DNA from: an uncultured delta proteobacterium
GTDB lineage: Bacteria > Desulfobacterota > Desulfobacteria > Desulfobacterales > UBA11574
Assembly (NCBI GenBank): GCA_963752565.1
Contig: CAVVZC010000019.1
Coordinates: 21,447-85,446, forward strand
Direction: 5' to 3'
Length of the DNA stretch: 64,000 nt
Each line of letters begins with the position of its first letter. Within the stretch, counting starts at the first letter, position 1. A model generated the notes under the pieces. It saw nothing but the letters and a program-made list of their open reading frames with translations, was not told where the DNA came from and did no database searches. Positions 6,781 through 64,000 of this stretch are shown piece after piece. The position numbers were made by a program, and so were the translations under genes.

Positions 6781-6854
6781 CGGTATGGATGAGATCTAAA
6801 AGAAAAGCATCATTTCTTAAAAATTGAGATAGGCTCTAATTGGGAGGATGTCAT

Positions 6855-8018
6855 ATGGATTTTGCGTTATCTAAAGAACTTCAGATGCTGAAAAAGGCGG
6901 TTTCTGAATTTGCGGCCAAAAAAATTGCACCCTATGCTGATGAGTGGGATGCAAAACATTATTTCCCTTACAAAGAAGCCATCAAGCCCATGGGAGAACT
7001 CGGTTTTTTTGGAACGGTCATTCCTGAAAAATATGGTGGAGAAGACATGGGTTGGCTGGCAGCCATGATTGTGACCGAAGAAATCGCAAAAGCCTCCAGT
7101 TCTCTCCGGGTTCAGATCAACATGCAGTGTCTTGGAAGCGCGTTTACCATCTGTAAATACGGGGATGAAGTCTTAAAACAAAAATACATCTCCAAATTAG
7201 TCGACGCCGAATATCTGGGCGGATTTGCCATAACAGAGCCCGATGCCGGTTCCGATGTCATGGCCATGACATCAACCGCCGAAGACAAGGGCGACCACTG
7301 GTGCTTAAACGGTTCCAAAACCTGGATCTCCAATGCAGACGTTGCGGATGTGATCATCTATTATGCTTATACAGATCCGGATAAGGGCACCAAAGGCCTT
7401 TCAGCCTTTGTCGTAGAACCAAAAAACTATAACGGTGTTAAAACCTCGGCTTTAGAAAAAATGGGGTCCCACTCCTCTCCCACCGGTGAAATATTTTTAA
7501 CCAATACTAAGGTCCCCAAGGAGAATATCATTGGAAGGCCCGGAGACGGTGCAAGGATTCTCTTCGGGTCTCTTGACCAAACCCGGCTTTCTGCAGCCGC
7601 CGGTGCCGTTGGTGTTGCACGGGCATGTTTGGAAATATCGCTAAAATATTGCAATGAACGCAAACAGTACGGAAAACCCATCGGCGAGTTTCAAATGAAT
7701 CAGGACATGATCGCCCAGATGTCCACCGAAATTGAAGCAGCCCGTTTTTTGGTTTACAAAGCAGCCTGGGCAAAGGATCAGGGAAACCTGAACAACGGTC
7801 TCGATGTGGCACAGGCAAAATATTTTGCAGGCGAAGTCGCTACCAAATGTGCGGGCTATGCCATGCGGATTCTGGGAGCGTACGGTTATTCCACCGAATA
7901 TCCGGTGGCCCGTTTTTATCGGGATACGCCAACCTATACCATGGTGGAAGGATCGGCCAATATCTGTAAATGGATTATTGCCCTGGATCAGCTCGGCATC
8001 CGAAAGGCAAACCGGTAA
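6855..8018 (+). CDS. Acyl-CoA dehydrogenase, probably glutaryl-CoA dehydrogenase type
   Basis: ACAD signatures (GFAITEPDAGSD, GSKTWISN, YRDTPTYTMVEGSANI). From memory it closely resembles the non-decarboxylating glutaryl-CoA dehydrogenase of Desulfococcus. GGAGG RBS lies before ATG 6855. Confidence 0.85.
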   Translation: MDFALSKELQMLKKAVSEFAAKKIAPYADEWDAKHYFPYKEAIKPMGELGFFGTVIPEKYGGEDMGWLAAMIVTEEIAKASSSLRVQINMQCLGSAFTICKYGDEVLKQKYISKLVDAEYLGGFAITEPDAGSDVMAMTSTAEDKGDHWCLNGSKTWISNADVADVIIYYAYTDPDKGTKGLSAFVVEPKNYNGVKTSALEKMGSHSSPTGEIFLTNTKVPKENIIGRPGDGARILFGSLDQTRLSAAAGAVGVARACLEISLKYCNERKQYGKPIGEFQMNQDMIAQMSTEIEAARFLVYKAAWAKDQGNLNNGLDVAQAKYFAGEVATKCAGYAMRILGAYGYSTEYPVARFYRDTPTYTMVEGSANICKWIIALDQLGIRKANR

Positions 8019-8114: not shown

Positions 8115-9008
8115 TTGTTGAAAGAAACACAACCTACAAAGCCCATAACAATTAATTATCCAAAGAACAAAAATAAGACCGCATCCCGAACCTTCCGCAA
8201 AACCATCCAATTTTATTTGATTGATTGCAAGACGCCATTGGGAAAGGCAATTGATATTTTCATCATATTTCTCAATCTCATCATCTGCGCTATTTTTGTC
8301 ATCGAGACCTATCCCGTGCCCGAGTCAGTTAAAAATTTTCTGTGGAACACAGAACTTATCATTGTATTTTTTTTCATCGCTGAATATGTTGCACGACTTT
8401 ACGGTGCAAAAAATAGACTCAAACAATTAATTGATGTTTATAGCATCGTTGACTTAATCGCCATTATACCGACCCTTTCTCTGCTTGTGCTTCCCCTGTT
8501 CGGTATTGCGCTCAACATTGGATTCTTAAGGGTAATCCGGATGATCCGTGTATTGAGGATATTCAGGTTCCTTCGGTTCACGGCAGATCCTAACTTCTTC
8601 TTTGGCACCATCACCCTTCGGTTGTTGAATTTAATCAAGCTCTTTTTAACCATATTCATGATTTTTTTCATATCTTCCGGTCTTTTTTTCTATGTTGAAA
8701 ACACGCTAAACCCACACGTTCAAACTTTCGGAGATGCGTTTTATTTCACTGTCGTAACGCTTTCGACAGTGGGATTCGGAGACATCATTCCCATGTCCGA
8801 AGCAGGAAAATGGGTCACCGTGCTAATGATACTGTCAGGTATTATTCTCATCCCCTGGCAAGTGAGCCGTATCGTCAAGGAGTGGTTACACATTGCCACA
8901 AAAAAAGAAATCATTTGTCCGAAATGCGGCCTTCGCTACCATGACGAAAATGCTTCACATTGTAAATCCTGCGGACATATTATTTACCAGGAATATAACG
9001 GGGATTAA
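8115..9008 (+). CDS. Voltage-gated-type (6TM) K+ channel with C-terminal zinc-ribbon
   Basis: S4-like RVIRMIRVLRIFRFLRF, selectivity filter TLSTVGFGD, and a C-terminal CPKCG...CKSCG. The TTG start is uncertain. Confidence 0.8.
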   Translation: MLKETQPTKPITINYPKNKNKTASRTFRKTIQFYLIDCKTPLGKAIDIFIIFLNLIICAIFVIETYPVPESVKNFLWNTELIIVFFFIAEYVARLYGAKNRLKQLIDVYSIVDLIAIIPTLSLLVLPLFGIALNIGFLRVIRMIRVLRIFRFLRFTADPNFFFGTITLRLLNLIKLFLTIFMIFFISSGLFFYVENTLNPHVQTFGDAFYFTVVTLSTVGFGDIIPMSEAGKWVTVLMILSGIILIPWQVSRIVKEWLHIATKKEIICPKCGLRYHDENASHCKSCGHIIYQEYNGD

Positions 9009-9162
9009 CCCTATCCTAAACTGAACGTTTCAAATAGTGACAGGGTTATAAAAAAGCAACAATTATAAATAAATATACATTGCTAAAGTCGCCAATAGAT
9101 TTCATCTAATCGGTGGATTTATTTAAACAAAAAATTGCCACCATTTGAAACCCTTCGGGCTT

Positions 9163-9254
9163 GCCGAGTTTCCCGAATCTGCATCGTTATGAGACATTTG
9201 CAGTAGCAGACTACGGCTGCATGTCTCATGCCTTGCATCTCCGGCAAACTCGAC
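9163..9254. repeat. Long imperfect palindrome / structured intergenic element
   Basis: The core atgagacat..(gcag/ctgc)..atgtctcat forms 9+4 bp around a 13-nt loop. It is extended by outer pairings cgagttt/aaactcg, ccg/cgg and tgca/tgca. Confidence 0.5.
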
Positions 9255-9297
9255 AATCGCTCAATTTAGGCCTGTCTTTCAATGGAAATTCATAAAA

Positions 9298-9984
9298 ATG
9301 GGAATTCTACTGCTTGAGGGAGGATGCGAATTTCAAGGGAAAATGGAAGAGCCGGACAGGAAAGCACTGACACTGGCCGGGGGAAAAAATGCTAAAGTTG
9401 TCATTATACCGACTGCCGCAGCACCGGACAACAATAGCAAACGAGCCGGCAATACAGCATTGGAATGGTTTGGTACACTCGGTGCAAGAAATATTTCCGC
9501 TTTGCCGATTATAGATAAAGAATCAGCCAATGATCCGGATCTCTCGGCCGAATTGGATCGTGCAAACCTAATTTATATTCTTGGAGGGTTTCCCGGCTAT
9601 CTGGATCACACCTTTAAAGAAAGTCGATGTCTGGATGCCCTTTGGCGCGCTTATGAAAAAGGCGCTGTAATTGCAGGGAGCAGTGCGGGTGCAATGGTTT
9701 TATGTGAGTGGTATTTTGATCCTGAATATAAAAAGATAAAGAAAGGGTTTGGGATCCAAAAAGACGTCATTTTGATTCCACACCATGATACATTTGGTCG
9801 TTCATGGCGTTTGCTATATTTTGATAAAATTTCAGACATCCGATGCATCGGCATAGATGAACAAACAGGAATGATTCGTCAAGCCGACCGTCATCGATGG
9901 ACCGTGTACGGAAAAGGTGGGGTTACGTTATATTTAAAAACGTCCATTGCGTCATATAAGACCGGGCAAACATTTCAGTTATAA
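9298..9984 (+). CDS. Peptidase S51 / cyanophycinase-like (GATase1-like fold) protein
   Basis: VVIIPTAAA, IYILGGFPG and the nucleophile-type motif AGSSAGAMV. Confidence 0.75.
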   Translation: MGILLLEGGCEFQGKMEEPDRKALTLAGGKNAKVVIIPTAAAPDNNSKRAGNTALEWFGTLGARNISALPIIDKESANDPDLSAELDRANLIYILGGFPGYLDHTFKESRCLDALWRAYEKGAVIAGSSAGAMVLCEWYFDPEYKKIKKGFGIQKDVILIPHHDTFGRSWRLLYFDKISDIRCIGIDEQTGMIRQADRHRWTVYGKGGVTLYLKTSIASYKTGQTFQL

Positions 9985-10196
9985 AACACCTGTGACCGAT
10001 GTCGCAGTTCGAAGGTTATCTTTAAGCAATAATAAAAAAGTTCTTTTTCGTGTTTTTACAATTTCGTGCTTTCGTGATAAAGATTTAATTTTTGTTCCTC
10101 GCTTTAGTTTCAGTAAAAACGGAATTTTTTTAAGCAATGATCGGTTTGTCAGGGTTAGGGTTAAACCGTTACACGCGATTTATGAGGTTTTTTTTT

Positions 10197-11459
10197 ATGT
10201 CTTCAAGAAAGGGCATGATCGTTCTGATGGGTTCCGGTGAGCTTACCCCCACAATGGTGGAGGTGCACAAAAATATGCTTGCCCGATTTCCGGATTCTCC
10301 CACCGCTGTTTTCTTGGACACACCTGCCGGTTTTCAACTAAACGTCGATGAGATTTCAAGAAAAGCAGTTGAGTATTTTCGTGTTCACGTTCAACAACAG
10401 CTCAACGTCGCCTCTTACAAATCCTCGGAGAATACAAGCGCATTTGAAGCAGAAACAGCATTTCATATGCTTCGAAATGCAGATTTTGTGCTTGTGGGGC
10501 CGGGTAGTCCCACGTATGCTGTTCGTCAGCTTCAAAAAACGCCGATTCCTGAAATTCTTGTTAATAATATTCAATCCGGTGGATGTTTGGTGGCCGCAAG
10601 TGCCGCTGCTCTTACCATGGGCCGTTTTACTCTTCCTGTGTACGAAATATACAAGGTCGGACATAAAACCCATTGGGTCGATGGGCTCGATGTTCTAGAA
10701 CAATTCGGATTCAATCTGATCGTCGTTCCTCATTGGAACAATGCCGAGGGCGGAACCCACGATACTCGATTCTGTTTTATGGGAAAACCCCGTTTTCAGC
10801 AACTTGAGACGCTTTTACCGGATAACGCGACGATCATAGGCATTGATGAACATACCGCCTGTATCATTGATCTTAATGCCCAACGAATCGATATCCAGGG
10901 AATTGGCAATGTAACCATTCGACAAAAAGGACGTGAAATAAAATTTGGTAAAGGAGATCAAATTCCCCTTGACGTATTGGTTAAAGAAATCAATCGGGAG
11001 GATTGGGCGCCGAAAGACGTTGATGACGTCGAGCAAGCCAGTGATCCGAATCTTTCAAAAAAAAGCTTTTTAAGTAAAGTTAATGCAATAGAATCTTCTT
11101 TTCACAATGGGATGGCGAATCATGATCAAAAAGAGACAACCAATGCCCTTTTGGAATTGGACAGCGCCATTTGGATAGCGCAAAAGAATCTGGAAGATGA
11201 AGAGCGTATTTCTCAAGCGCGAGAGATCCTGAGAGATTCAATCGTGCTTTTAGGCGCCGAATTGGGGGCTTCACCCCGTCGTCTTCGAAAATATTTAGCG
11301 CCTCTTGTTGAACAAATGCTTAAATTAAGGACAAGGTTCAGAAAGGAGCAACAATGGTCTGAGGCTGACCGCATCCGGGAGATCCTTCAACAATCCAATA
11401 TTCAGGTTGAAGATACCAAGGACGGGGTCCGCTGGCATATCATTGATGAAGACATTTAG
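10197..11459 (+). CDS. S51/GATase1-like domain fused to a CysRS-type C-terminal helical module
   Basis: The N-terminal half (IVLMGSGELT, LVGPGSPTY, VAASAAALTMG, IIGIDEHTA) parallels S51 proteins. The C-terminal ~140 aa (FHNGMANHDQKETTNALLELDSAIW ... WSEADRIREILQQSNIQVEDTKDGVRWHI) resembles the C-terminal part of cysteinyl-tRNA synthetases. The start may be 10197 or 10215. Confidence 0.7.
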   Translation: MSSRKGMIVLMGSGELTPTMVEVHKNMLARFPDSPTAVFLDTPAGFQLNVDEISRKAVEYFRVHVQQQLNVASYKSSENTSAFEAETAFHMLRNADFVLVGPGSPTYAVRQLQKTPIPEILVNNIQSGGCLVAASAAALTMGRFTLPVYEIYKVGHKTHWVDGLDVLEQFGFNLIVVPHWNNAEGGTHDTRFCFMGKPRFQQLETLLPDNATIIGIDEHTACIIDLNAQRIDIQGIGNVTIRQKGREIKFGKGDQIPLDVLVKEINREDWAPKDVDDVEQASDPNLSKKSFLSKVNAIESSFHNGMANHDQKETTNALLELDSAIWIAQKNLEDEERISQAREILRDSIVLLGAELGASPRRLRKYLAPLVEQMLKLRTRFRKEQQWSEADRIREILQQSNIQVEDTKDGVRWHIIDEDI

Positions 11460-11598
11460 CCCGAATATTTCATGAAAATTTTCGAGAGGCCTTTTTATTA
11501 GTAATGAAAACAGTTTTTTATTTACAATTTTGCTTCAAAAGGAACTCCGAATTATAGAGAGAATCGAGAAATCACCGGCTCAAGGAGACGATATATTC

Positions 11599-11833
11599 AT
11601 GCAACCACACCATCAAATGAATGTTCTATGTTGCCTTTCAAAATCAAAATCCAACCTTTCTTCACTCTTAAGGTATTTAGACAAAAATACCCCATGTTCA
11701 GGCCATCATATCGGAAAAACTTCCAGCGGATTTAAGCAAATTTCAGGTCGTTATTACGGAGCCCGCATCAGCACACAATCCAGCCCCTAAAAATTTAGAA
11801 CAATTTGTTAGATCAGGGGGGGGATGGCTGGGA
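11599..11833 (+). pseudogene. Out-of-frame N-terminal segment of the ThuA-like::Gfo/Idh/MocA gene (frameshift at an A5 run)
   Basis: After AAGGAG and ATG 11599, frame 1 reads MQPHHQMNVLCCLSKSKSNLSSLLRYLDK. Frame 2 is open only from 11681 and continues IPHVQAIISEKLPADLSKFQVVITEP...FVRSGGGWLGV, which is ThuA-like. The frames meet at aaaaa 11683-11687. Confidence 0.6.
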
Positions 11834-13255
11834 GTGATCAGTCTGTTGGAATTGCCCATATCAGAACTTTTCGGTGTATCATCCGGTCCTATTGGCCTGG
11901 AATCGGAAACACGGGTCCTGTTTCAAGATATAAATCAGCCGATGGCGGACCGATTACCCGATGCCATTTATGTGAAAGGACGATATCATCCCCTTCAGGT
12001 CCTCAAAGAAGATGTAACGACACTATTGTATGCTGATTGGCGTTATCAGCACAGTCCGGTATTGGTGTGCCGTCAGGTCGACGCCGGCCGGGTGGCATGT
12101 ACAACCCTTCAAGACTTTGAAAATTCTGACTTAAAACGGATCATCTATCGGTTATTACGAAAACTTTCAGGACAACCCGTAACTTCTGAGAACCTAAATG
12201 TCGGGATATTGGGGTACGCCCCTTCGGTAGGAGCGCTTCATGGAAACGGCGTTAACACGACTAACGGATTTAAGCTCCACGCCGTTTGTGACTTAAATCC
12301 CCAGCGGTTGAAGATGGCAGAGCATCGATTCCCCGAGACAAAAGTATATTCAAATGCCAAAGAATTAGCCAATGACGATGACGTAGATTTGGTCATCATC
12401 GCCACACCACCCAACAGTCATGCTAAGTTATCCCTTCAGATGATGACGAATAAAAAGCATGTGGTCTGTGAAAAACCTTTGGCACTCAATCGCAGCGAAA
12501 CATACCGGATGTTGGAAATGGCTGAAAAAATGAAGGTCCATTTAAGCTGCCACCAGAACCGGCGCTTTGACCCTGACTTTACGGCGATCAAACGTGCATT
12601 GCATGAAGATCTCATTGGCGATCTTTTCTATATGGAAACGTTTGTCGGCGGGTTCTCGCACCCTTGCGGATACTGGCATTCTCACGAAGAAATCTCCGGA
12701 GGTATTTCCTATGACTGGGGCGCACATTATTTGGACTGGATTGTTGATCTTATCCCTGACCATCCGGAATTTGTCGCTGCCTTTCGTCACAAAAGGGTAT
12801 GGCATGATGTAACCAATGCCGACCACGAAAGGATATGGATTAAATTTAAAGGGGGTAAGGAGGCTGAATTTATTCATTCAGATATTGCTGCTGTTCGCAA
12901 GCCCAAGTGGTACCTTTTAGGCACCAAAGGGGCAATCGTCGGACACTGGAAAGATGTGGCCACGTATCATATCGATCCGGTCCTTTATTTTCACCAACAG
13001 AACATTCCGGCAACGGAGATGATTCCGGATATGACGCTTTTCCGGTGTCATGCTTCAGGACAAATCTTAGAGCAAAAGATGGCCATACCCGAACGAAAAG
13101 ATTACGCATTCCATAAAAATCTTGCAGATCATCTGTTGACCGGTGAACCCCTGCTTTCATCTTTAATGGATTCTGTAAAAGTCGTTTCCATTTTAGAAAC
13201 AGCAGCCCTGAGTGCATCAAAAGGCGGCAGCATGGAGCGATTCGATGAATTTTAG
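11834..13255 (+). CDS. ThuA-like (C-terminal part) fused to Gfo/Idh/MocA oxidoreductase
   Basis: ThuA-type segment (PVLVCRQVDAGRVACTTLQDFEN) is followed by a Rossmann segment (VGILGYAPSVG...DLVIIATPPNSHAKL...VVCEKPLALN). The track GTG start is probably not the native start; see the frameshift feature. Confidence 0.75.
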   Translation: MISLLELPISELFGVSSGPIGLESETRVLFQDINQPMADRLPDAIYVKGRYHPLQVLKEDVTTLLYADWRYQHSPVLVCRQVDAGRVACTTLQDFENSDLKRIIYRLLRKLSGQPVTSENLNVGILGYAPSVGALHGNGVNTTNGFKLHAVCDLNPQRLKMAEHRFPETKVYSNAKELANDDDVDLVIIATPPNSHAKLSLQMMTNKKHVVCEKPLALNRSETYRMLEMAEKMKVHLSCHQNRRFDPDFTAIKRALHEDLIGDLFYMETFVGGFSHPCGYWHSHEEISGGISYDWGAHYLDWIVDLIPDHPEFVAAFRHKRVWHDVTNADHERIWIKFKGGKEAEFIHSDIAAVRKPKWYLLGTKGAIVGHWKDVATYHIDPVLYFHQQNIPATEMIPDMTLFRCHASGQILEQKMAIPERKDYAFHKNLADHLLTGEPLLSSLMDSVKVVSILETAALSASKGGSMERFDEF

Positions 13256-14267
13256 CATAAAATGGGGAATTTTAGGTAACGCCACGATTGCCAGAAAATG
13301 CGTGATTCCAGCCATCTTCAGCTCCGCAAATGGCCGCGTTCATGCTCTGGCATCTCGAAATTTTAAAAAAGCAGAAGCATTAGCAGAAAAATACGACATC
13401 ACCCGATTATACTCGCAATATGAATCCGTTATTGAAGATAAACAGGTCGACATTGTTTACATTCCCCTTCCCAATCATCTTCATAAGGAATGGACGATCA
13501 AAGCCTTAGGGGCTGGAAAACATGTTTTATGTGAAAAACCCCTGGCCTGTAATACTGCCGAGGCCATTGAAATGGCAGAGATTGCGTCGAAAAAAGGCTT
13601 GCATCTCATGGAAGCACTCATGTACCGGTTTCATCCGCGCAGCAGGATCATCCACCAAATGGTTTCAAAGGGGAAAATCGGAACACCGCGACTTGTTCGA
13701 GTTTCGTTTTGTTTCCATATGGAAGAACATATTTTAAAGAAAAAAGAGAATGCCCGTCTGAAAAAAAGGGGGGGAGGCGCGCTTTTAGATGTGGGATGCT
13801 ATGGCGTCAGTGTCGCACGATGGATGATGGGAGAAGATCCTGAAAGCGTTCAAGCCACTGCACATTTTAACTCTGAGGGTGTCGATATACACACAGTCGG
13901 TGTTTTGCACTTTCGAAACGGTGGCCTGGCAACGGTTGAAGCCAGCTTTATTAGTTCTCTGCAGCAGACCTATACCATCGTCGGTGAAGACGGTTCCATT
14001 GAACTTCCACACAATGCCTTTATTCCATGGGAAAAAGATGCAACTTACGTTCATCGTGGCAGACATGAGGAAATCGGCAGACAAGAAGTTATTCCGGGTG
14101 CAGACGAGTATCGGTTGATGGTTGAACATTTTTCAGACGTCCTAATCCACGGGTCCTCACCTTTGGTCCAAATTCACGACAGTATACAAAACATGCGGGT
14201 ACTGGACGCATTGGCCGAGTCGGCAAGATCCGGACAAATGGTTCTAATCCCTAAAAAGCAAATTTAA
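13245..14267 (+). CDS. Gfo/Idh/MocA family oxidoreductase
   Basis: IKWGILGNATIARK, DIVYIPLPNHLHKEW and HVLCEKPLA motifs. ATG 13245 overlaps the upstream stop codon. Confidence 0.85.
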   Translation: MNFSIKWGILGNATIARKCVIPAIFSSANGRVHALASRNFKKAEALAEKYDITRLYSQYESVIEDKQVDIVYIPLPNHLHKEWTIKALGAGKHVLCEKPLACNTAEAIEMAEIASKKGLHLMEALMYRFHPRSRIIHQMVSKGKIGTPRLVRVSFCFHMEEHILKKKENARLKKRGGGALLDVGCYGVSVARWMMGEDPESVQATAHFNSEGVDIHTVGVLHFRNGGLATVEASFISSLQQTYTIVGEDGSIELPHNAFIPWEKDATYVHRGRHEEIGRQEVIPGADEYRLMVEHFSDVLIHGSSPLVQIHDSIQNMRVLDALAESARSGQMVLIPKKQI

Positions 14268-14284
14268 CCTGAATTCATTTAAAA

Positions 14285-15289
14285 ATGTCGATGAACCTGA
14301 ATAAACAAAGAATAGAGATCAAAACAGAACCCTTTGAGCGACTAGAGTCTTTTTATCTAAACAAAAAATTCAATCTTGATTGGAACTGTTTGTTTGTTCT
14401 TCCCCTGTGGCTGAAAACATGGTGGGACACTTTTGGCGAGAAAAATAGACCTGAAATTCTGGCGGGATATCGTCATGGAAAATTAATTGGCATTGCCCCT
14501 TTGCGTATTCAAGATAAAACAGCGCGGTTCATTGGTGGAGAAAATGTGTGCGATTACCAGGACATGATCGTGGCGTCAAATCATCACCATGAATTCTATA
14601 AGGCAATTTTAACCCACCTGAAACAAAAGGGGATACGGTCTCTCCAATTGGGAACATTAAGACACGATTCCATATCGCTAACCCAATTGCCGAATCTGGC
14701 CAAACAAATGGGATATGCTGTTGTTTGTAATCAAGTGGCGTTTAGCTATGAAATAATATTACCCCGCACCTGGGAATCATATCTTTATATGCTCAAGGGA
14801 AAACAGCGCCATGAAATTCGACGAAAATTGAGGCGGCTAAACGAAGCGGGACATGTCCAATTTCGTGTTCTTGAACGATTGGATGAAATATCCGAAGCCA
14901 TGGATACCTTTTTTTCTTTGTTTAAGGCCAGCCGCCCGGACAAGTCTGAATTCCTGACAGAACAAATGGTGTCCTTTTTTCGTTTGTTGGCCCAAAGAAT
15001 GGCTCAACAGGGATTTTTGAGAATGTTTTTTTTAGACATTGATCGAGTACCGGCTGCCGGCGTAATGTGCTTTGACTACAATGATATCCTATTTCTTTAT
15101 AATAATGGATATAATCCTCAATTTAGCAATCTGAGTCCCGGGTTTCTCAGCAAAGTGTATAGTATCAGAAACAGTATTGACCAGGGAAAGCTTCGGTACG
15201 ATCTATTAAAGGGTGATGAAGGGTATAAAAAACGTCTGGGGAGTTCGCCGGTGCCGCTGTATCATTTAAAAATAGATCTTGAAGGATAA
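14285..15289 (+). CDS. GNAT-fold acyltransferase of the CelD/BcsL (FemAB-related) type
   Basis: LPRTWESYLYMLKGKQRHEIRRKLRRL ... NLSPGFLSKVYSIRNSIDQGKLRYDLLKGDEGYKKRLG matches the CelD-type family pattern. Confidence 0.7.
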   Translation: MSMNLNKQRIEIKTEPFERLESFYLNKKFNLDWNCLFVLPLWLKTWWDTFGEKNRPEILAGYRHGKLIGIAPLRIQDKTARFIGGENVCDYQDMIVASNHHHEFYKAILTHLKQKGIRSLQLGTLRHDSISLTQLPNLAKQMGYAVVCNQVAFSYEIILPRTWESYLYMLKGKQRHEIRRKLRRLNEAGHVQFRVLERLDEISEAMDTFFSLFKASRPDKSEFLTEQMVSFFRLLAQRMAQQGFLRMFFLDIDRVPAAGVMCFDYNDILFLYNNGYNPQFSNLSPGFLSKVYSIRNSIDQGKLRYDLLKGDEGYKKRLGSSPVPLYHLKIDLEG

Positions 15290-15331
15290 AGAGATTCAGA
15301 CAAAAAACCGACAAGAGATGAGAAGAATCAA

Positions 15332-16603
15332 ATGAAGCGGCGTTCAACAGAATTGAAAATTGCCATGCTGAGTATCCATTCAAGTCCCATTGGTGATTTG
15401 GGGACCCAGGATACAGGCGGAATGAGCGTTTATGTTCGGGAAATGGCCAAAGAATTGGGCAGAAAGGGCCATCATATCGACATCTTCACACAGCACAATG
15501 TCTGCAAGCACGATCCGGTCCTACATTTATACGACAACGTTCGTCTCGTCCATTTATCAGGGGGAACACGCGAGAATATCGCCAAATTCTCTCTCTATGA
15601 GATTTTGCCGCAACTATTTGACGAATTAGAATCCTTTCGAATCAAGGAAAATATCACGTATGATATCATCCACAGCCATTATTGGCTCTCAGGGGTTTTA
15701 GGGCTCAAGCTCCAGTCATCCTGGAATGCATATCACCTGGTCACATACCATACCATCGGCGCTGTGAAAAACTTAACCTGTCCAACGGAAAATGCGTCCA
15801 AATTACGGCTGACAAACGAAAATGAACTGGCAAAGCTGTGTGATCAAATTGTCGTTCCCACCCAACAAGATAAGGAACATTTAATCCGGTATTACAACGC
15901 ACCTATTGATAAAATCCGGATTATTCCGTGTGGTGTTAATCTTGGACTTTTCAAACCATTGGACAAAGCATCTGCTCGCCGGTTTTTGGCGTTTTCTACA
16001 GATGATCGCATTGTCTTATATGTGGGACGGTATGCCCCCATTAAAGGACTTGATCGTTTGTTCAAAGCGCTTGGCAATCTTACACATTTTTCTCATCTTC
16101 GCCTGGTCATGGTGGGGGGTGACGGCGAACACTCCCCCATGTTTCGACAGTTAAAATCCAATGCAACGACGCTTCACATCGAAAATCTCATAACGTTTGC
16201 CGGGAGGGTGGACCAGGAAACCCTGCCCCAATATTACAGTGCTGCGGATGTTCTGGTTGTACCATCCTATTATGAGAGCTTCGGTCTTGTGGCACTCGAG
16301 GCATTGGCTTGCGGAACGCCTATTGTGACCGCTTCGGTCGGCGCGATGGAAGAAATTGTAAAAGAGGGCGTTACAGGATATGTCGCAAAGGACCCGAATC
16401 CACAACATTATGCCCGGCTGATCGAAACCATTTTGATAAAGCAGCAGCAGAACGGCTTATCGCCCTCAAAAATTCGGTCATCAGTGGCCCAATATACATG
16501 GACAAGGTCCGCTTCCATGTTACTTGACGCGTACCGGGCGGCATGGACGGATACATCGGAAAATATTTATAAAAATAAAGAGGAGATTCAATTTGTTAAA
16601 TAG
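15332..16603 (+). CDS. GT4 glycosyltransferase, MshA-like (inositol-phosphate glycosyltransferase family)
   Basis: IAMLSIHSSPIGDLGTQDTGGMSVYV, YDIIHSHYWLSG, YHTIGAVKN and ESFGLVALEALACGTP parallel the conserved blocks of MshA. Confidence 0.75.
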   Translation: MKRRSTELKIAMLSIHSSPIGDLGTQDTGGMSVYVREMAKELGRKGHHIDIFTQHNVCKHDPVLHLYDNVRLVHLSGGTRENIAKFSLYEILPQLFDELESFRIKENITYDIIHSHYWLSGVLGLKLQSSWNAYHLVTYHTIGAVKNLTCPTENASKLRLTNENELAKLCDQIVVPTQQDKEHLIRYYNAPIDKIRIIPCGVNLGLFKPLDKASARRFLAFSTDDRIVLYVGRYAPIKGLDRLFKALGNLTHFSHLRLVMVGGDGEHSPMFRQLKSNATTLHIENLITFAGRVDQETLPQYYSAADVLVVPSYYESFGLVALEALACGTPIVTASVGAMEEIVKEGVTGYVAKDPNPQHYARLIETILIKQQQNGLSPSKIRSSVAQYTWTRSASMLLDAYRAAWTDTSENIYKNKEEIQFVK

Positions 16604-17288
16604 ATCCGAAATAATGGTGATAGCAGCACATCCGGATGATGCGGAATTCGGTGCCGCGGGTTCCGTTGCCAGGTGGACCATAGAAGGAAGACGGGTAGTC
16701 TATGTGGTGTGCACCAGCGGGGACAAAGGCACCGACAATCCGGACATACCCCCCCAACAGCTTGCTAAAATTCGAGAAAAAGAGCAAAGAGACGCTGCTG
16801 CGGTATTGGGTGTCTTTGATGTCGTTTTCCTTGGATATCCTGACCAGGGACTCGAAGATACATCGGATTTTCGCAAAGCGATTGTAAGGCAAATCCGAAC
16901 ATATAAACCGGATATGATCGTGACATCTGATCCTTACAGGCGTTACATCTGGCACAGAGACCATCGCATCACCGGACAGGTAACACTGGATGCGGTCTAT
17001 CCTTATGCCCGTGATCTGCTGGCATATCCAGGTTTAATCGAAGAAGGACTCATGCCCCATAAGGTGAAAAAAATCCTGTTCTTCGGAACCGAGGATGTCA
17101 ATTTGCGGATAGACATTACCGGAACCTTTCACCTCAAACTTGAAGCATTGCGTTGTCACAAAAGCCAAATTATCCAGCTTGGCATCCCTGATCTGGAAAA
17201 ATGGCTTTGGCAGCGATGTCAAAAAATGGCCGAAGGCGAATATTTTGAGGTCGCCGAAGCGTTTCATCAGGTGGAGGTGGCCTTTTAA
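16593..17288 (+). CDS. PIG-L/LmbE family N-acetylglucosaminyl deacetylase
   Basis: VIAAHPDDAEFGAAG, CTSGDKG and HRDH metal and active-site motifs. TTG 16593 has GAGGAG 7 nt upstream; ATG 16614 is the alternative start. It overlaps the GT4 stop. Confidence 0.85.
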   Translation: MLNRSEIMVIAAHPDDAEFGAAGSVARWTIEGRRVVYVVCTSGDKGTDNPDIPPQQLAKIREKEQRDAAAVLGVFDVVFLGYPDQGLEDTSDFRKAIVRQIRTYKPDMIVTSDPYRRYIWHRDHRITGQVTLDAVYPYARDLLAYPGLIEEGLMPHKVKKILFFGTEDVNLRIDITGTFHLKLEALRCHKSQIIQLGIPDLEKWLWQRCQKMAEGEYFEVAEAFHQVEVAF

Positions 17289-17290
17289 AC

Positions 17291-17311
17291 CGCTTCGGAA
17301 ACACCGAGGCG
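17291..17311. terminator. Hairpin between convergent genes
   Basis: cgcttcgg-aaaca-ccgaggcg forms 8 bp (one G-U) starting 3 nt after the PIG-L stop. There is no clear U-tract. Confidence 0.3.
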
Positions 17312-17360
17312 ACATATCGACTTTGAAAGCGTATATTATTTCGAAAAAGGGTGGGCGGGA

Positions 17361-18020
17361 TTATTCCGACAAATGGATTCTCGGGTTAAAATAAGCGATT
17401 GACGGATGCTCATCTTTTTTATCCGTCGAATAAGAAAATGTGGTAATTGATGAAACGGCGGGATATTCTTTTAGGACTCCAAGGGTCGTAAATCTTTTCT
17501 TGTTAAGAGGTGTTGTAGAGAAATGACTCGCCCACAGCATCATGAATAAAATAACGTCACCGTGTGTCACCGCCACGACATGCTTTCCGGAACAGGTGCG
17601 GCGCGTCCTGGATAAAAACTTTTGAACCCTAAACAAGATGTCTTCCGGTTGTTCATATTTCGAATCGACGCCAGTGTAAACATCTCCGGCTCTTAAATCA
17701 ACCGCTTCCGAAGACTGACCTTGAAACGGTGTAAGAACCTCCGTGATTAAGCTCGATTGTCTTGGTTTGAGGTGACGATGATATTTAAGTATTTCAGCTG
17801 CTGTTTGGCGGCAGCGAAGCAGGGGGCTGCTAATAATATCTTCAATGATCAGATCCTTCAAAGACCGAGCCGCTCGAGCCGCTTCAAGGCGCCCTCTTTT
17901 GCTTAAATAAAACCCCGGTAAACGGCCATAAAAAATATTGGATGGATTATGCACACTGGCATGTCGAACCAAAGAAATGCGTGTGACTGCATTTTGGGGA
18001 ATCATTCCGGTTTTTACCAT
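17361..18020 (-). CDS. Histidine phosphatase (phosphoglycerate-mutase-like) family protein
   Basis: ISLVRHASVHN (RH catalytic motif) and VAVTHGDVI (second His). Confidence 0.8.
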   Translation of the reverse strand: MVKTGMIPQNAVTRISLVRHASVHNPSNIFYGRLPGFYLSKRGRLEAARAARSLKDLIIEDIISSPLLRCRQTAAEILKYHRHLKPRQSSLITEVLTPFQGQSSEAVDLRAGDVYTGVDSKYEQPEDILFRVQKFLSRTRRTCSGKHVVAVTHGDVILFMMLWASHFSTTPLNKKRFTTLGVLKEYPAVSSITTFSYSTDKKDEHPSIAYFNPRIHLSE

Positions 18021-18068
18021 TTGGATGCTTTGAGACCTTTGAAAGATGTGGGTTTTTGTTATGAACGC

Positions 18069-19175
18069 TCATTTGTTTGAAATAAAATCTTCTAACAATG
18101 AGAATGCAAAATCATCCGTATATTGTACGGGTGGATGTTTGCAATAGTAGGCTGAAGGCGCCTCTAATACGCCACCAATATTTCGTTCGATGGCCAATTT
18201 GCATAGGCGAATACAATCGATGGCAGCGCCAGCGGAATTGGGCGAATCCTCAACAGACAACCTAAGTTCAAGGTTCATAGGTATATCACCAAAAAGTCTG
18301 CCTTCCATTCGAATAAAACACACTTTGTTGTCGTTGAGCCACGGGACATAGTCACTGGGGCCAATATGTATGTTACGGTCTTCAAGCTTTTCTTCCATAA
18401 CGGCTTGAACAGCCACTGTTTTTGATTTCTTTTTTTTATCAAGCCGCTTCCTGTTCAACATATTTAAAAAATCGGTGTTGCCCCCCGTATTTATTTGATA
18501 TGTCTTTTCTAACTTGGCACCCCGTTTTCCAAACAGGTTCGTTAACGCCCGATGAACAATCGTTGCGCCGAGTTGGGATTTAATATCGTCGCCTATTATT
18601 GGAATTCCGCTGGATTTAAACTGTTCGGCCCAAAAAGGATCGCTCGCAATAAAAACAGGAATGTTGTTGATAAATGAAACACCGGCTTCCAGGGCACATT
18701 CGGCATAAAATCTTGATGCCTCTTCCGAACCCACCGGCAAATAATTTAAAAGTATTTCCGTGCCGGAATGCTTTAAAATTTTGATGACGTCGCTTTGGGT
18801 TGGTTCTTTTTCATCACAAAGCAAAAATGTATATTCAGGGTCATAGTTCTTCATATGTTCAGAAAAACCGTCCAATATTTTCCCCATGGACACTCCAACT
18901 CCTGCTTTGGGCATGTTCGTAACAAATTTTTTAGTGCAGTTCGGTCGCTCAAAAATGGCTTCATGAACGTCTTTACCGACTTTTCTCCGATCGATGTCAA
19001 ATGCCGAAACAACTTCAATATCAACAGGTGTATAACCATTGATCGACCAATATAAAATTCCGCTGGCATTATTGTGTTTTTTGCTCTGGTAATATATAGT
19101 TCCCTGAAGGAGCGAACTTGCACAATTACCAACACCGATGATACCGATTTTTATGGGTGTCATATCATCATCCAA
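18069..19175 (-). CDS. ino1: myo-inositol-1-phosphate synthase
   Basis: KIGIIGVGNCASSL, GDDIKSQLGATIVHR, NTGGNTDF and SVEDSPNSAG match the bacterial/archaeal short MIPS type. The start is TTG 19175 or ATG 19163. Confidence 0.9.
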   Translation of the reverse strand: MDDDMTPIKIGIIGVGNCASSLLQGTIYYQSKKHNNASGILYWSINGYTPVDIEVVSAFDIDRRKVGKDVHEAIFERPNCTKKFVTNMPKAGVGVSMGKILDGFSEHMKNYDPEYTFLLCDEKEPTQSDVIKILKHSGTEILLNYLPVGSEEASRFYAECALEAGVSFINNIPVFIASDPFWAEQFKSSGIPIIGDDIKSQLGATIVHRALTNLFGKRGAKLEKTYQINTGGNTDFLNMLNRKRLDKKKKSKTVAVQAVMEEKLEDRNIHIGPSDYVPWLNDNKVCFIRMEGRLFGDIPMNLELRLSVEDSPNSAGAAIDCIRLCKLAIERNIGGVLEAPSAYYCKHPPVQYTDDFAFSLLEDFISNK

Positions 19176-34280: not shown

Positions 34281-36749
34281 ATGAAACTTCGCTCAATCCT
34301 TCTGGTGTTGTCTTTGCTGGCCTTCTTGTCTGCTTCAACAGGGGGATACCTCTATTATTCGTCGTTAAAAGAATCCGCCCAAAAAGAATCGGAAAGACAG
34401 ACCTCGACACGTGCAGAGATGATTCGGAAAAATTTGTCCTCATTTCTTTCAGAAAACATCAAACCTGTGAAAACCATATCCGGAATGAAGGAGCTCCAGG
34501 CTTGTCTGATCAACCGCGATAAGGGTTCATTTGACCAGGCAAATGCCATGCTTGACCATTTTAAAACCTCCCTGAATGTGGACGTCTGTTACCTGATGGA
34601 CTCCGTAGGGAATACCATCGCGTCAAGCAACCGGAATGATCCTGACAGCTTCGTGGGAAACAATTTTGCGTTTAGGCCATACTTCAAAGAGGCTTTAAAA
34701 GGTATCCCTTCCACTTATTTGGCGCTGGGCACAACATCCGGGAAACGAGGGGCATATTATAGCCATCCGGTTTACGTGGGAGGACAGGAGTCTCCGGCAG
34801 GAATTGTTGTTATAAAGGTGTCAGTCGAACTTATCGAAAGCGAATTAACCACGACTTCAGGCGAAATTGTTTTGGTTACCGATCCCCAGGGGATTGTATT
34901 TATTTCTAATCAAAAGGGATGGCTTTTACATTCATTAGGGAAACTTTCACCCACTGACATCTCCCAAATTTCGAGGTCTCTCCAATTCGGAAATGGACCG
35001 TGGAAATGGATCGGCCTGGAAATCAAAAGAAAAAAACACGCCGAGGATACTCGGGGAAACGATTATCTCATTCACCGGTTGGGTCTTTATAATTATCCTG
35101 GATGGGATGTCATCCATTTGTACAATCTCAAAGAAATATCCAAAATCTTTTTCAGCCCGCTGCTCAAAATTATAGAACCTATTATTATTGTGTTGTGTGT
35201 TCTGGTAGGACTGGCGGTTTTTTTGCTTTACAAAAAAGCGAGTGATGAGCTGATAAAGCGGCAGACTTTTGAGAGGGCATTACAAAAAAGCGAAGAAAGA
35301 TATCGTTCTATTTATCATAATACCCCGGCCATGCTGCATTCCATAGATCCAAACGGTTGCCTGATCAGTGTGAGTGACAATTGGCTTGAAATAATGGGTT
35401 ATGAACGTGAAGACGTCATTGGCCAAAAGCTGACGCGCTTTTTCACCCCGGACTCGAAGTCCTATGCTGAAACAGTCGTTTTCCCCGAATTTTTTAAGAC
35501 CGGATTTTGCAAAGACATTCCCTACCGGTTTGTAAAGAAAAATGGGGATGTTATTGATGTCCTTCTTTCCGCCATCGGTGACCGGGATGACAAAGGAAAT
35601 ATCACCCGATCTCTGGCCGTCACCATTGACGTCACCGAACGAATCCGGGCGGAAAAAGACTTAAAACTTACCAAGGAGGAGCTCCGTCGATACTCTAAAG
35701 ATTTAGAACGTCAGGTACGAAAACGGACAAGAGAGATTAACAGTATTCTTCAATATACCCCGTCCGTTGTCTATATCAAAGACAGACAAGGGCAGTATAT
35801 TCTGGTTAATTCACGATTTGAAGAATTGTTTGGTGTTCAAAATGATGACGTTCGCGGGAAAACCGACCATGACATTTTCCCAAAAGAAGAAGCTGAACAA
35901 TTTCGCAACAATGACCTGAAAGTCCTTTCACAAAAACGTTCCTATCAGGTTGAGGAACGCATTCATCAAAAGGATGGTATTCACACCTATCTTTCTGTAA
36001 AATTTCCTCTTTATGACGAATCAGCTGACATCATCAGTGTTTGCGGGATTTCAACCGATATTACCGATGTCAAAAAGGCCCAAGATCAACTCAGGCGTCT
36101 TTCGGGAAGCATTATGGCCAATCAGGAAAAAGAACGTTCTGCCATTGCCAGGGAATTACACGATGAACTGGGGCAAGTCCTGACGGCACTCAACATGGAC
36201 TCGGTCTGGCTGCATGAACATCTTAAGGAAACAGATGCAAAAGCCGCCCGACGAGCATTGACAATGTGCGAACTGATCAATAAAACCATTGAAGAGGTTC
36301 GAAGCCTGGCCATTCGGCTACGTCCTGGAGTTCTCGATGATCTGGGGCTTGTAGATGCTTTGGAATGGTATACTGCTGATTTTGAAAGACGTACCGGCAT
36401 CACATGCGTTTTTGAACATGCCAATATTCCCAACATCAGTGACAATGTTGCTACCGCAGCGTATCGTATCGCACAGGAAACTCTGACGAATGTGGCACGC
36501 CATGCTTCTGCAAGCCGTATAGAAGTCGATCTTCAGGAAAATGAAGGGATGTTGTCGTTATCAACCATCGACGATGGTATGGGATTTAACGACTCGGAGC
36601 TATCTGAAGCAGAGGCTCTGGGGATTGCCGGAATGCGTGAACGCGCCGTTCTTGTGAACGGCGTTCTGAACGTCCAATCCCAGCCGGGAAATGGGACCCG
36701 TGTTCTTTTCAAGGTCTCCATTGACGGTCAGAAAGGGGGAATGTCTTGA
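34281..36749 (+). CDS. Sensor histidine kinase (periplasmic double-PDC/Cache-like domain, 2 PAS, HisKA_3, HATPase)
   Basis: N-terminal TM, a ~280-aa periplasmic domain (FRPYFKEAL...YYSHPV), a second TM, two PAS regions, H-box HDELGQVLTAL, then NVARHA, DDGMGF and GIAGMRERA. Confidence 0.9.
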   Translation: MKLRSILLVLSLLAFLSASTGGYLYYSSLKESAQKESERQTSTRAEMIRKNLSSFLSENIKPVKTISGMKELQACLINRDKGSFDQANAMLDHFKTSLNVDVCYLMDSVGNTIASSNRNDPDSFVGNNFAFRPYFKEALKGIPSTYLALGTTSGKRGAYYSHPVYVGGQESPAGIVVIKVSVELIESELTTTSGEIVLVTDPQGIVFISNQKGWLLHSLGKLSPTDISQISRSLQFGNGPWKWIGLEIKRKKHAEDTRGNDYLIHRLGLYNYPGWDVIHLYNLKEISKIFFSPLLKIIEPIIIVLCVLVGLAVFLLYKKASDELIKRQTFERALQKSEERYRSIYHNTPAMLHSIDPNGCLISVSDNWLEIMGYEREDVIGQKLTRFFTPDSKSYAETVVFPEFFKTGFCKDIPYRFVKKNGDVIDVLLSAIGDRDDKGNITRSLAVTIDVTERIRAEKDLKLTKEELRRYSKDLERQVRKRTREINSILQYTPSVVYIKDRQGQYILVNSRFEELFGVQNDDVRGKTDHDIFPKEEAEQFRNNDLKVLSQKRSYQVEERIHQKDGIHTYLSVKFPLYDESADIISVCGISTDITDVKKAQDQLRRLSGSIMANQEKERSAIARELHDELGQVLTALNMDSVWLHEHLKETDAKAARRALTMCELINKTIEEVRSLAIRLRPGVLDDLGLVDALEWYTADFERRTGITCVFEHANIPNISDNVATAAYRIAQETLTNVARHASASRIEVDLQENEGMLSLSTIDDGMGFNDSELSEAEALGIAGMRERAVLVNGVLNVQSQPGNGTRVLFKVSIDGQKGGMS

Positions 36750-37384
36750 TCAAAGTATTGTTGGCAGACGATCACAGTATCGTTCGCGCCGGACTGCGCC
36801 GTCTTGTGGAAGAAAGCGACGACATGGAGGTGGTTGCCGAAGCGGCCGACGGTAAAGATGCGATTCAGAAAGTCCACAAGTATACTCCCGACGTGGCGGT
36901 CATCGATATCTCCATGCCGGGAGTGGATGGTTTGGAGGTTATCAGTCAGCTTCGTTCTTTTTACCCCAAACTGCCGACTATTATTCTGACCATGTACGAA
37001 GAAGAACAATATGTGGTTCGGGCCATCGAAGCCGGAGCTATGGGGTATATTACTAAGAGATCGGCACCGGAACAACTTTTAAAGGCCATCCGTAAAGTAC
37101 ATGCCGGTTTTCGATATCTGACCGCCGAAGCCGCTGAATTGCTGGCATTGAGAGTGGCCAGGGGGACAGACAGCCGTTCTCCCCTTGACAATCTGTCCAT
37201 GAGAGAACTTCAGGTGTTGAGGCGCCTGGCTATGGGACATACCAATCGGGAAATTGCCGAATCCTACCATATCAGCATTAAAACCGTAGACACCTACCGT
37301 TTACGGTTGTTAAAGAAACTCAACCTGCGAAACAATGCCGAGCTTTCGCGTTTTGCGATTCAAAACCGGCTTATTGAGTCATAA
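36746..37384 (+). CDS. NarL/LuxR-family response regulator
   Basis: MIKVLLADDH, VAVIDISMPG, and a C-terminal LuxR HTH (LSMRELQVLRRLAMGHTNREIAESYHISIKTVDTYR). It overlaps the kinase stop. Confidence 0.92.
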   Translation: MIKVLLADDHSIVRAGLRRLVEESDDMEVVAEAADGKDAIQKVHKYTPDVAVIDISMPGVDGLEVISQLRSFYPKLPTIILTMYEEEQYVVRAIEAGAMGYITKRSAPEQLLKAIRKVHAGFRYLTAEAAELLALRVARGTDSRSPLDNLSMRELQVLRRLAMGHTNREIAESYHISIKTVDTYRLRLLKKLNLRNNAELSRFAIQNRLIES

Positions 37385-63976: not shown

Positions 63977-64000
63977 CTGAAGATCCTCCAATTGAGAAAA

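Follow-up and report, generated by a model that had tools for sequence, protein, structure and literature searches.

A conserved gene cluster of anaerobic Desulfobacterota as a candidate pathway for a glucosaminyl-inositol thiol with a possible tRNA-dependent cysteinylation step

The closest described counterparts of the gene cluster presented here are the pathways of the thiols mycothiol and bacillithiol. In Actinobacteria, mycothiol is assembled by a myo-inositol-1-phosphate synthase (MIPS), the GT4 glycosyltransferase MshA, a phosphatase and a PIG-L/LmbE-family deacetylase, followed by acylation of the glucosamine (GlcN) amine; we know of no protein assigned to its phosphatase step (MshA2) in that group. 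The ligase MshC is a paralogue of the catalytic domain of cysteinyl-tRNA synthetase (CysRS) and has lost the anticodon-binding part. MshC appears to act without tRNA (PMC2922099). In bacillithiol synthesis, a GT4 glycosyltransferase and a PIG-L deacetylase likewise precede the addition of cysteine, and the acceptor is malate. Sulfate reducers and many strict anaerobes lack glutathione to our knowledge, and we know of no compound established as their major protective thiol. The present analysis concerns a nine-gene cluster in a 64,000-nucleotide stretch (the window, meaning the whole of the DNA that was analysed) of contig CAVVZC010000019.1, from an uncultured delta proteobacterium of the Desulfobacterales lineage UBA11574 (assembly GCA_963752565.1). 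Its gene content is consistent with a cytosolic pathway whose thiol product would be completed by tRNA-dependent cysteinylation carried out by a Fem-like GNAT protein, a reading to which we assign a probability of about 0.5. Searches of a full-text literature collection did not turn up any account of the cluster, nor of its fusion of a Peptidase S51 hydrolase to a CysRS C-terminal region (S51-CysRS-C).

In the proposed pathway, whose steps were derived from protein families, gene context and comparative genomics, MIPS would convert glucose-6-phosphate into inositol phosphate, the GT4 enzyme would add N-acetylglucosamine (GlcNAc) to it, the histidine phosphatase would take off the phosphate, and the PIG-L protein would deacetylate the product, exposing the glucosamine amine of GlcN-inositol. 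The Fem-like double-GNAT would then acylate this amine from an aminoacyl-tRNA, in place of the ATP-dependent ligase MshC. The amino acid transferred would most probably be cysteine, as the neighbouring gene, which is often translationally coupled, encodes the module with which CysRS binds the tRNA-Cys anticodon. The expected product here would be Cys-GlcN-inositol or a tailored form of it, which relatives with an MshD-like GNAT would N-acetylate; the untailored conjugate would have a mass of about 444 Da, as against about 486 Da for the acetylated mycothiol. We consider it quite likely that the core of the cluster makes a GlcN-inositol-type compound. The broadest form of the proposal, in which anaerobic Desulfobacterota and Nitrospirota make an unrecognised thiol of the Cys-GlcN-inositol family and take its cysteine from Cys-tRNA(Cys) through a Fem-like transferase acting with or alongside the fusion, as a new enzyme class, is advanced tentatively.

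A reading of the letters alone (the sequence-only reading) had described an inositol-centred cluster of nine genes, and this was borne out: all nine open reading frames (ORFs) were found at the same coordinates and their family calls hold in Pfam and NCBIfam searches, with matches to S51, GFO_IDH_MocA, Acetyltransf_6, PIG-L, His_Phos_1 and Inos-1-P_synth (Table 1). Its statement that no MshC or BshC is visible likewise holds, as no homologue of MshC, BshC, GshA or GshB occurs among the large ORFs of the window and CysRS is represented only by residues ~337-460; a class I synthetase catalytic domain is missing from the cluster and from the same large ORFs. The proposed order of chemistry is that of mycothiol synthesis, and in some related clusters there is in addition a tandem GNAT that matches MshD best. 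The differences lie in the absence of MshC, in whose place stand the Fem-like Acetyltransf_6 protein and an S51 hydrolase bearing of CysRS only the anticodon-binding part, in the absence of MshD from the window, whose own GNAT is an Acetyltransf_6 protein, in the presence of a phosphatase gene within the cluster and in the hosts, which are anaerobic Desulfobacterota and Nitrospirota; moreover, no protein of the cluster reaches an NCBIfam equivalog cutoff. With bacillithiol the cluster shares the GT4 and PIG-L pair, the PIG-L protein having BshB1 and BshB2 as its best models, and the window encodes no N-acetyltransferase, so that the cysteine amine could stay free, as in bacillithiol itself. 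However, the GT4 protein scores 111 bits on the BshA model (cutoff 274) versus 311 on MshA, BshC is missing, and the acceptor would be linked to inositol phosphate and not malate. Apparently, the cluster works like mycothiol synthesis without being a member of that system by curated models, with the MshC step filled by unrelated, tRNA-linked proteins.

The conservation of this arrangement was followed in ~160 related loci (designated by L numbers), the genome loci being anchored on S51-CysRS-C and the metagenome loci on the GNAT, and all ORFs of 80 S51-CysRS-C loci were scored against the window proteins (L084 was too short to contribute gene context). The order S51-CysRS-C, GNAT, GT4, PIG-L recurs in Desulfobacterota, Nitrospirota, Deferrisomatales and Syntrophobacteraceae. 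Among the 38 genome loci of the closer clade with enough downstream DNA, GNAT was present in 30, GT4 in 31, PIG-L in 25 and all three in 24, as opposed to none of 13 loci from the distant clade (Actinomycetota, Chloroflexota and Dormibacterota) with GNAT, GT4 or PIG-L. In the GNAT-anchored loci, GT4 follows GNAT in every case (52/52), 32 of 40 have PIG-L, and either S51-CysRS-C or the Gfo pair lies upstream of the GNAT in 28 of 44; S51-CysRS-C is directly upstream in most loci from Desulfobacterota and Nitrospirota. The genes are thus syntenic in relatives, the synteny being kept in more than 90 loci, which argues that the arrangement is not due to chance. The stand-alone S51 gene (S51a) directly precedes S51-CysRS-C in 12 of the 38 informative genome loci and is an optional member, and the modules are separable: L003 is without the Gfo pair, L002 without MIPS, and L001 without GNAT, GT4, PIG-L and an intact phosphatase, of which only a short His_Phos_1-like remnant is left.

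With regard to the glycosyltransferase, the GT4 protein scores 311 bits on the MshA model TIGR03449 (equivalog cutoff 462.5) and 117 bits on the next-best model. In control searches with the MshA model, CgMshA scored 718 bits, the sucrose-phosphate synthase (SPS) Tll1590 286 and the GT4 orthologues 283-314; given the score of Tll1590, the MshA-model score was rejected as evidence for an inositol acceptor. Against PDB sequences (phmmer), the GT4 protein matched Tll1590 with 227 bits, CgMshA with 223 and BshA with 67-70. In 33 GT4 orthologues, the residues corresponding to Y110, H133, T134 and R154 of CgMshA are invariant, position 78 is K or R in 29, and N25 is always replaced by S. Positions K78, Y110, T134 and R154 of CgMshA are, we presume, those that bind the acceptor phosphate; as the CgMshA-type positions are also conserved in SPS, they indicate a phosphorylated acceptor but not inositol specifically. 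On these sequence grounds, the GT4 protein is to be placed in the MshA/SPS group, whose acceptors are phosphorylated, and it is a candidate UDP-GlcNAc:inositol-phosphate GlcNAc-transferase. The PIG-L protein, which travels together with GT4 across phyla, scores 92 bits on BshB1 (cutoff 182) and 43 bits on MshB (cutoff 224), and is a candidate GlcNAc-inositol de-N-acetylase.

The supply of inositol phosphate would come from MIPS, which scores 412 bits on the mycothiol_INO1 model TIGR03450 (equivalog cutoff 638). A MIPS of the same short type is adjacent in the window, L001, L003-L006, L048, L050, L085 and L088-L093, and in L048 and L050 (47-48% identity) it lies on the same strand directly after PIG-L. 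In L009, L021, L115 and L120, a long MIPS of ~440 amino acids (NAD_binding_5 + Inos-1-P_synth) stands in for the short type. Two MIPS forms that are not orthologous were thus recruited, which speaks for a requirement for inositol phosphate as substrate. A comparable alternation was found at the phosphatase step: His_Phos_1 is present in 10 genome loci and a HAD phosphatase near S51-CysRS-C in 8 others (L006, L008, L009, L021, L022, L025, L048 and L050; also in L090-L093 and others), in L022 near a lone S51-CysRS-C gene, whereas the two never occur together (0 of 25 loci with GNAT, GT4 and any phosphatase). This exclusivity fits one required dephosphorylation filled by either enzyme, and the histidine phosphatase is a candidate GlcNAc-inositol-phosphate phosphatase for the step equivalent to MshA2. 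The GlcN-inositol core put forward in the sequence-only reading is therefore supported by the GT4 and PIG-L pair found across phyla, by the two MIPS forms and by the occurrence of His_Phos_1 or HAD but never both.

That reading had also suggested a differently wired, possibly tRNA-dependent, acylation of the amine, and both proteins concerned now lend support to it, since the model of the GNAT lies nearest to FemX, Sbb17/Sba18 and MprF and the CysRS C-terminal module of the fusion is real (E = 4e-19 to 3e-14). Searches of the PDB by sequence with the GNAT, as a single sequence or as a profile, gave no meaningful match. Its AlphaFold2 model is confident (predicted local distance difference test score, pLDDT, 91.7) and has template-modelling (TM) scores of 0.59-0.64 to FemX and Sbb17/Sba18 and of 0.50-0.55 to MprF, while the acetyl-CoA tandem GNATs of the comparison set (VipF, MAB_4324 and a GlcN N-acetyltransferase) align poorly to it (TM 0.37-0.50, root-mean-square deviation ~9 Å). 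As modelled, the GNAT is thus closer in fold to aminoacyl-tRNA-dependent transferases than to acetyl-CoA tandem GNATs. An invariant basic helix spans K173-R184 (K173, R175, H176, R179, R180, K181, R183 and R184) and the C-terminus bears a conserved YKK motif; in FemX, a tRNA-binding helix and a catalytic lysine have been described, and Orf11, a Fem-like enzyme, aminoacylates the amine of an amino sugar using Gly-tRNA (PMC12945691). Consequently, the proposed aminoacylation of an amine has a chemical precedent. Sbb17 and Sba18, which are grouped here with Orf11, are aminoacyl-tRNA-dependent peptide synthases, with structures containing the amino-sugar substrate streptothrisamine. The window's GNAT shares with FemABX, MprF and Orf11 the double-GNAT fold, a basic helix that opens domain 2, and a lysine motif at the C-terminus, but by sequence it is a CelD-like Acetyltransf_6 protein and not of the FemAB family proper, and it is partnered with a separate protein carrying an anticodon-binding module, which the known Fem enzymes do not need. 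The ligase role was given to this protein because GNAT and GT4 form an invariant pair, and the structural model makes it a candidate aminoacyl-tRNA-dependent transferase acylating the GlcN amine.

The S51-CysRS-C protein consists of an S51 serine-hydrolase domain (residues 1-~265), a linker and a CysRS anticodon-binding-like region (~290-420) made of a helical bundle and an alpha/beta domain, ~125 residues in all. In CysRS, the C-terminal helical bundle and alpha/beta domain read the GCA anticodon. The Pfam CysS_C match taken alone is borderline (23.1 bits, cutoff 23); a profile built from 21 diverse fusion C-termini matched five CysRS structures over E. coli residues ~337-460 (8qhp, E = 4e-19; 6ujd, 1e-14; 3tqo, 2e-14; 1li5, 3e-14; and a fifth CysRS, 5e-6), and its best non-CysRS match had E = 0.047. 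The module retains the most conserved residues of the CysRS anticodon-binding domain (homologues at 35-58% identity). In terms of sequence, the fusion C-terminus is homologous to the CysRS anticodon-binding region and is predicted to bind tRNA-Cys; the fusion has a hydrolase where CysRS has its catalytic Rossmann domain. The N-terminal domain has the fold and the Ser-His-Glu triad of the Peptidase S51 enzymes PepE and cyanophycinase: Foldseek retrieved S51 enzymes (E = 4e-10 to 6nqc and PepE; 7uqw was also listed), and the residues of the triad S135/H179/E218, which aligns to 6nqc, are each invariant or kept by 90% or more of 45 diverse homologues (31-56% identity), so that this domain is predicted to be catalytically intact. 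The protein encoded by S51a likewise has 6nqc and cyanophycinases as its closest PDB entries. In the proposed pathway, the fusion could select or present Cys-tRNA(Cys), form a cysteinyl-enzyme intermediate, or act in deacylation or recycling.

The fusion is a large family in its own right and no NCBIfam model covers it. More than 8000 relatives share words with it, 454 clusters of a 50%-identity library match at E <= 1e-30 (mostly of ~400-430 amino acids and aligned end to end), and it is carried by at least 592 species-level genomes (one genome scanned per species), among them Desulfobacterota, Nitrospirota, Syntrophomonadaceae, Chloroflexota, Actinomycetota, Dormibacterota and others. In L041, L047, L052-L081 and L083 (38-45% identity), from Syntrophomonadaceae, Chloroflexota, Acidimicrobiia and other Actinomycetota, and Dormibacterota, the gene stands alone, and no conserved partner was found around the stand-alone genes of Actinomycetota, Chloroflexota and Dormibacterota. 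In general, then, the function of the family is not bound to the GlcN-inositol genes.

Two neighbours that recur in related loci are both absent from the window. One is a tandem Acetyltransf_1 GNAT of 312-330 amino acids located between GT4 and PIG-L in 14 loci, which among the NCBIfam models scores highest on MshD (96-101 bits, with most of the model aligned; cutoff 163). The other, found in 28 loci, is an MBL-fold hydrolase whose best model is the hydroxyacylglutathione hydrolase, glyoxalase II (84-92 bits; cutoff 200); the family was defined with the L157 protein as query, an earlier MBL query having given weak matches, and it recurs next to PIG-L with and without S51-CysRS-C. Judged from their sequences, the two together are as expected around a mycothiol-type thiol. 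The subclade with the MshD-like GNAT has no S51-CysRS-C in its captured DNA. Of 27 GNAT-anchored loci with adequate flanks, 18 have S51-CysRS-C only, 5 the MshD-like GNAT only, 4 neither and none both (Fisher's p = 0.0016, uncorrected for relatedness), with the genome locus L009, which carries both, as an exception. The history of the lineages may lie behind this anticorrelation, or else the molecule may be finished in two different ways.

Several observations weigh against the proposed thiol pathway. At its beginning, MIPS is adjacent in only ~15-25% of loci, the GT4 protein is not an MshA equivalog and Tll1590 scores about equally on the MshA model, and the inositol-phosphate acceptor and UDP-GlcNAc donor were deduced because MIPS and PIG-L adjoin. 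At its end, few Acetyltransf_6 proteins have a known donor and likeness of fold is no proof of tRNA use, the AlphaFold2 model of the fusion is of moderate quality (pLDDT 65), and the MshD-like and glyoxalase-II-like matches fall below curated cutoffs, both genes being absent here. Furthermore, one subclade retains GNAT, GT4 and PIG-L but has no S51-CysRS-C in the DNA captured. Since the fusion is absent there and alone in other phyla, its link to the pathway is facultative, and the choice of cysteine as the transferred residue depends on this facultative link.

In an alternative reading with an unchanged GlcN-inositol core, the roles of the two acylating proteins are swapped, the serine of the fusion taking cysteine from Cys-tRNA(Cys) onto the GlcN amine and the GNAT capping the cysteine amine, with an acyl or aminoacyl group, as an analogue of MshD. 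S51 enzymes such as PepE and cyanophycinase form acyl-enzymes with amino acids having a free alpha-amine, the triad of the fusion is conserved as described above, the tRNA-Cys module is on the fusion and not on the GNAT, and the anticorrelation of S51-CysRS-C with the MshD-like GNAT (18, 5, 4, 0) would also agree with such an exchange. However, the pairing of GNAT with GT4 is invariant, the subclade that retains GNAT, GT4 and PIG-L without S51-CysRS-C would have no ligase, the GNAT resembles tRNA-dependent transferases in fold more than it does acyl-CoA GNATs, and the fusion occurs alone in phyla without the cluster. The swapped arrangement therefore seems unlikely, and the GNAT is kept as the proposed cysteinyl transferase.

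The product might also be no thiol at all but a compatible solute or other soluble conjugate, either glucosaminyl-inositol or its N-aminoacyl form, the CysRS-like module having been reused. Derivatives of inositol commonly serve as osmolytes, sample names point to marine or saline sediments as the main origin of the relatives, the MshD-like and GloB-like matches are sub-threshold, and a Na+/H+ antiporter and an ion channel lie, with an acyl-CoA dehydrogenase, in the upstream flank of the cluster. Nevertheless, these flanking genes are unrelated to the cluster and the transport genes are not kept with it beyond the closest relatives, the C-terminal module of the fusion keeps the top-conserved anticodon-binding residues of CysRS, and recurrent glyoxalase-II-like and MshD-like neighbours would be hard to explain. 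An osmolyte is accordingly rather improbable as the end product.

A glycolipid would be made if GT4 and PIG-L acted on phosphatidylinositol or another lipid-linked inositol, the GlcN-inositol head group then being aminoacylated as by MprF. In support of this, GT4 then PIG-L is the order of the first two steps of glycosylphosphatidylinositol (GPI) synthesis, and the GNAT also resembles the lipid-aminoacylating C-terminal domains of MprF. In contrast to the PIG-A/PIG-L system of GPI, no membrane segment was found in the nine proteins (the maximal 19-residue Kyte-Doolittle score never exceeds 1.6), the ~160 loci show no recurrent CDP-alcohol phosphatidyltransferase or other lipid enzyme, GT4 keeps the residues for a soluble sugar-phosphate acceptor common to MshA and SPS, and a dedicated phosphatase accompanies the cluster. 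With soluble proteins and with MIPS and GT4 being anabolic, glycolipid and catabolic readings were set aside, the former as very improbable. An aminocyclitol or aminosugar compound of antibiotic type, as opposed to a housekeeping cofactor, is likewise highly unlikely: although the streptothricin-type enzymes Sbb17 and Sba18 are among the proteins most similar to the GNAT in structure, the Gfo pair resembles sugar-tailoring enzymes of antibiotic pathways such as KijD10 and the cluster content is modular and variable, the fusion and the GNAT are widespread (at least 592 species-level genomes for the former, and 577 metagenome stretches encoding relatives of the latter), close relatives share the same chromosomal flanks, the base composition equals that of the surroundings, and no transporter, resistance or regulator gene is kept alongside in the loci compared.

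The two Gfo/Idh/MocA oxidoreductases, GfoA and GfoB, are located between S51-CysRS-C and GNAT in about one third of the loci, and GfoA is always accompanied by GfoB. The closest PDB entries of GfoA are 3e18 and the DgpA C-glycoside 3-oxidases, those of GfoB the sugar 3-ketoreductase 3rbv and glucose-fructose oxidoreductase. The pair is an optional tailoring module that, from these sequence relationships, resembles an oxidase with a ketoreductase and may epimerise a hydroxyl of the sugar or cyclitol by oxidation and subsequent reduction. It recalls the ThuA/ThuB and DgpA sugar 3-oxidation systems in that a Gfo protein is joined to a domain of weak ThuA likeness and accompanied by another Gfo enzyme; unlike there, no sugar transporter or lyase lies alongside, and the pair here belongs to a predicted biosynthetic operon, with two thirds of the loci doing without it. 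Of the ThuA::Gfo fusion named in the sequence-only reading, the Gfo part stands, but the ThuA label is sub-threshold (PF06283, E = 8e-4, 20.2 bits versus a gathering cutoff of 33.4, with an intact orthologue scored) and the 5' part is frameshifted in the window. The ThuA-like N-terminal part starts at ATG 11590 in a frame that differs from that of the Gfo part; a 1-nucleotide insertion in the A-run at ~11686-11690 splits the two, and removal of one A rejoins the frames. The GfoA orthologues in L001 and L002 are intact (516-551 amino acids). Either an error in sequencing or assembly or a genuine loss of the N-terminal domain may account for the insertion; translation from the GTG at 11834 could still yield the Gfo part.

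Table 1. Genes of the cluster in the window, and selected genes of related loci with the coordinates of those loci.
Feature	Position	Strand	Match or remark
S51a, stand-alone Peptidase_S51 (cyanophycinase/PepE-like), 228 amino acids	9298..9984	+	PF03575 E = 2e-15
S51-CysRS-C fusion, 420 amino acids	10197..11459	+	Pfam Peptidase_S51 + CysS_C
GfoA, ThuA-like::Gfo/Idh/MocA oxidoreductase	11590..13255	+	GFO_IDH_MocA E = 4e-23; Gfo part alone from 11834
GfoB, second Gfo/Idh/MocA oxidoreductase	13212..14267	+	Pfam GFO_IDH_MocA
Fem-like double-GNAT	14285..15289	+	PF13480 Acetyltransf_6 E = 2e-31; FemAB_like 28.9 bits (cutoff 27)
Retaining GT4, MshA/sucrose-phosphate-synthase type	15332..16603	+	best NCBIfam model MshA, 311 bits
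PIG-L/LmbE-family deacetylase, 231 amino acids	16593..17288	+	PF02585 E = 7e-33, 114 bits (cutoff 28)
Histidine-phosphatase superfamily protein	17361..18020	-	PF00300 His_Phos_1 E = 4e-21
MIPS, short bacterial/archaeal type	18069..19175	-	PF01658 E = 2e-35, 122 bits (cutoff 27)
Long MIPS	L009 16786-18105; L021 17171-18535		NAD_binding_5 + Inos-1-P_synth
MshD-like GNAT	L121 9224-10159; L153 2826-3791; L157 9266-10255 (-); 11 more loci		
Glyoxalase-II-like MBL hydrolase	L157 11001-11771; L156 9963-10601 (-); 26 more loci		

The tight packing claimed for the plus-strand genes holds for 13212-17288 (a 44-nucleotide overlap, gaps of 17 and 42 nucleotides and an 11-nucleotide overlap) but not upstream, where the spacings are larger (212 nucleotides after 9984 and 130 after 11459). 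The start of S51-CysRS-C was placed at 10197 and not at 10137, on the basis of the homologue length of 420 amino acids. The PIG-L ORF has starts at 16524 and 16593, the latter overlapping the GT4 stop by 11 nucleotides, and MIPS probably starts a few codons inside its ORF, judging by orthologues of 364 amino acids. No Rfam match was obtained in the whole window at gathering thresholds, nor in 8950-10250 at E <= 1, and thus no riboswitch or T-box; no tRNA gene occurs in the window, and a promoter and terminator scan gave hits no more numerous than in shuffled sequence.

Upstream of S51a, a noncoding segment of ~230 nucleotides (9040-9270) is present in the window, L004 and L005 and missing from the otherwise collinear L002 and L003. 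It contains nested inverted repeats, folds into a long hairpin at 9156-9270 (-43.8 kcal/mol, z = -3.9), is single-copy in the window and has no Rfam match; possible readings are a small repeat element that was inserted here and a 5'-untranslated-region structure. In the upstream flank, the acyl-CoA dehydrogenase (6840-8018) is a single ORF of 392 amino acids, called as two fragments in two close relatives (L002 7250-7832; L003 6897-8061). The downstream flank encodes a TPR protein and a carboxyltransferase, also unrelated to the cluster. Elsewhere in the window lie two pairs of PAS/HisKA_3 sensor kinase and LuxR-type response regulator genes (34281-37384 and 61387-63991), with no visible link to the cluster, and a 572-amino-acid starch-synthase-like glycosyltransferase (Glyco_transf_5 + Glycos_transf_1; 57445-59163, minus strand) adjoined by a cyclopropane-fatty-acid-synthase-like methyltransferase (60000-61187).

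Taken together, the cluster constitutes a concrete candidate thiol pathway for anaerobes, and its His_Phos_1 and HAD proteins provide two candidates for the unassigned phosphatase step of mycothiol synthesis. If the proposed pathway is true, it would be the first thiol-cofactor pathway to draw cysteine from a charged tRNA and would tie the synthesis of a redox buffer to the translation pool. The joining of an S51 hydrolase to a CysRS anticodon-binding region defines a large uncharacterised protein family which, if the proposal is true, would represent, in hundreds of species of at least six phyla, a new tRNA-dependent aminoacyl-transferase or a tRNA-gated hydrolase.

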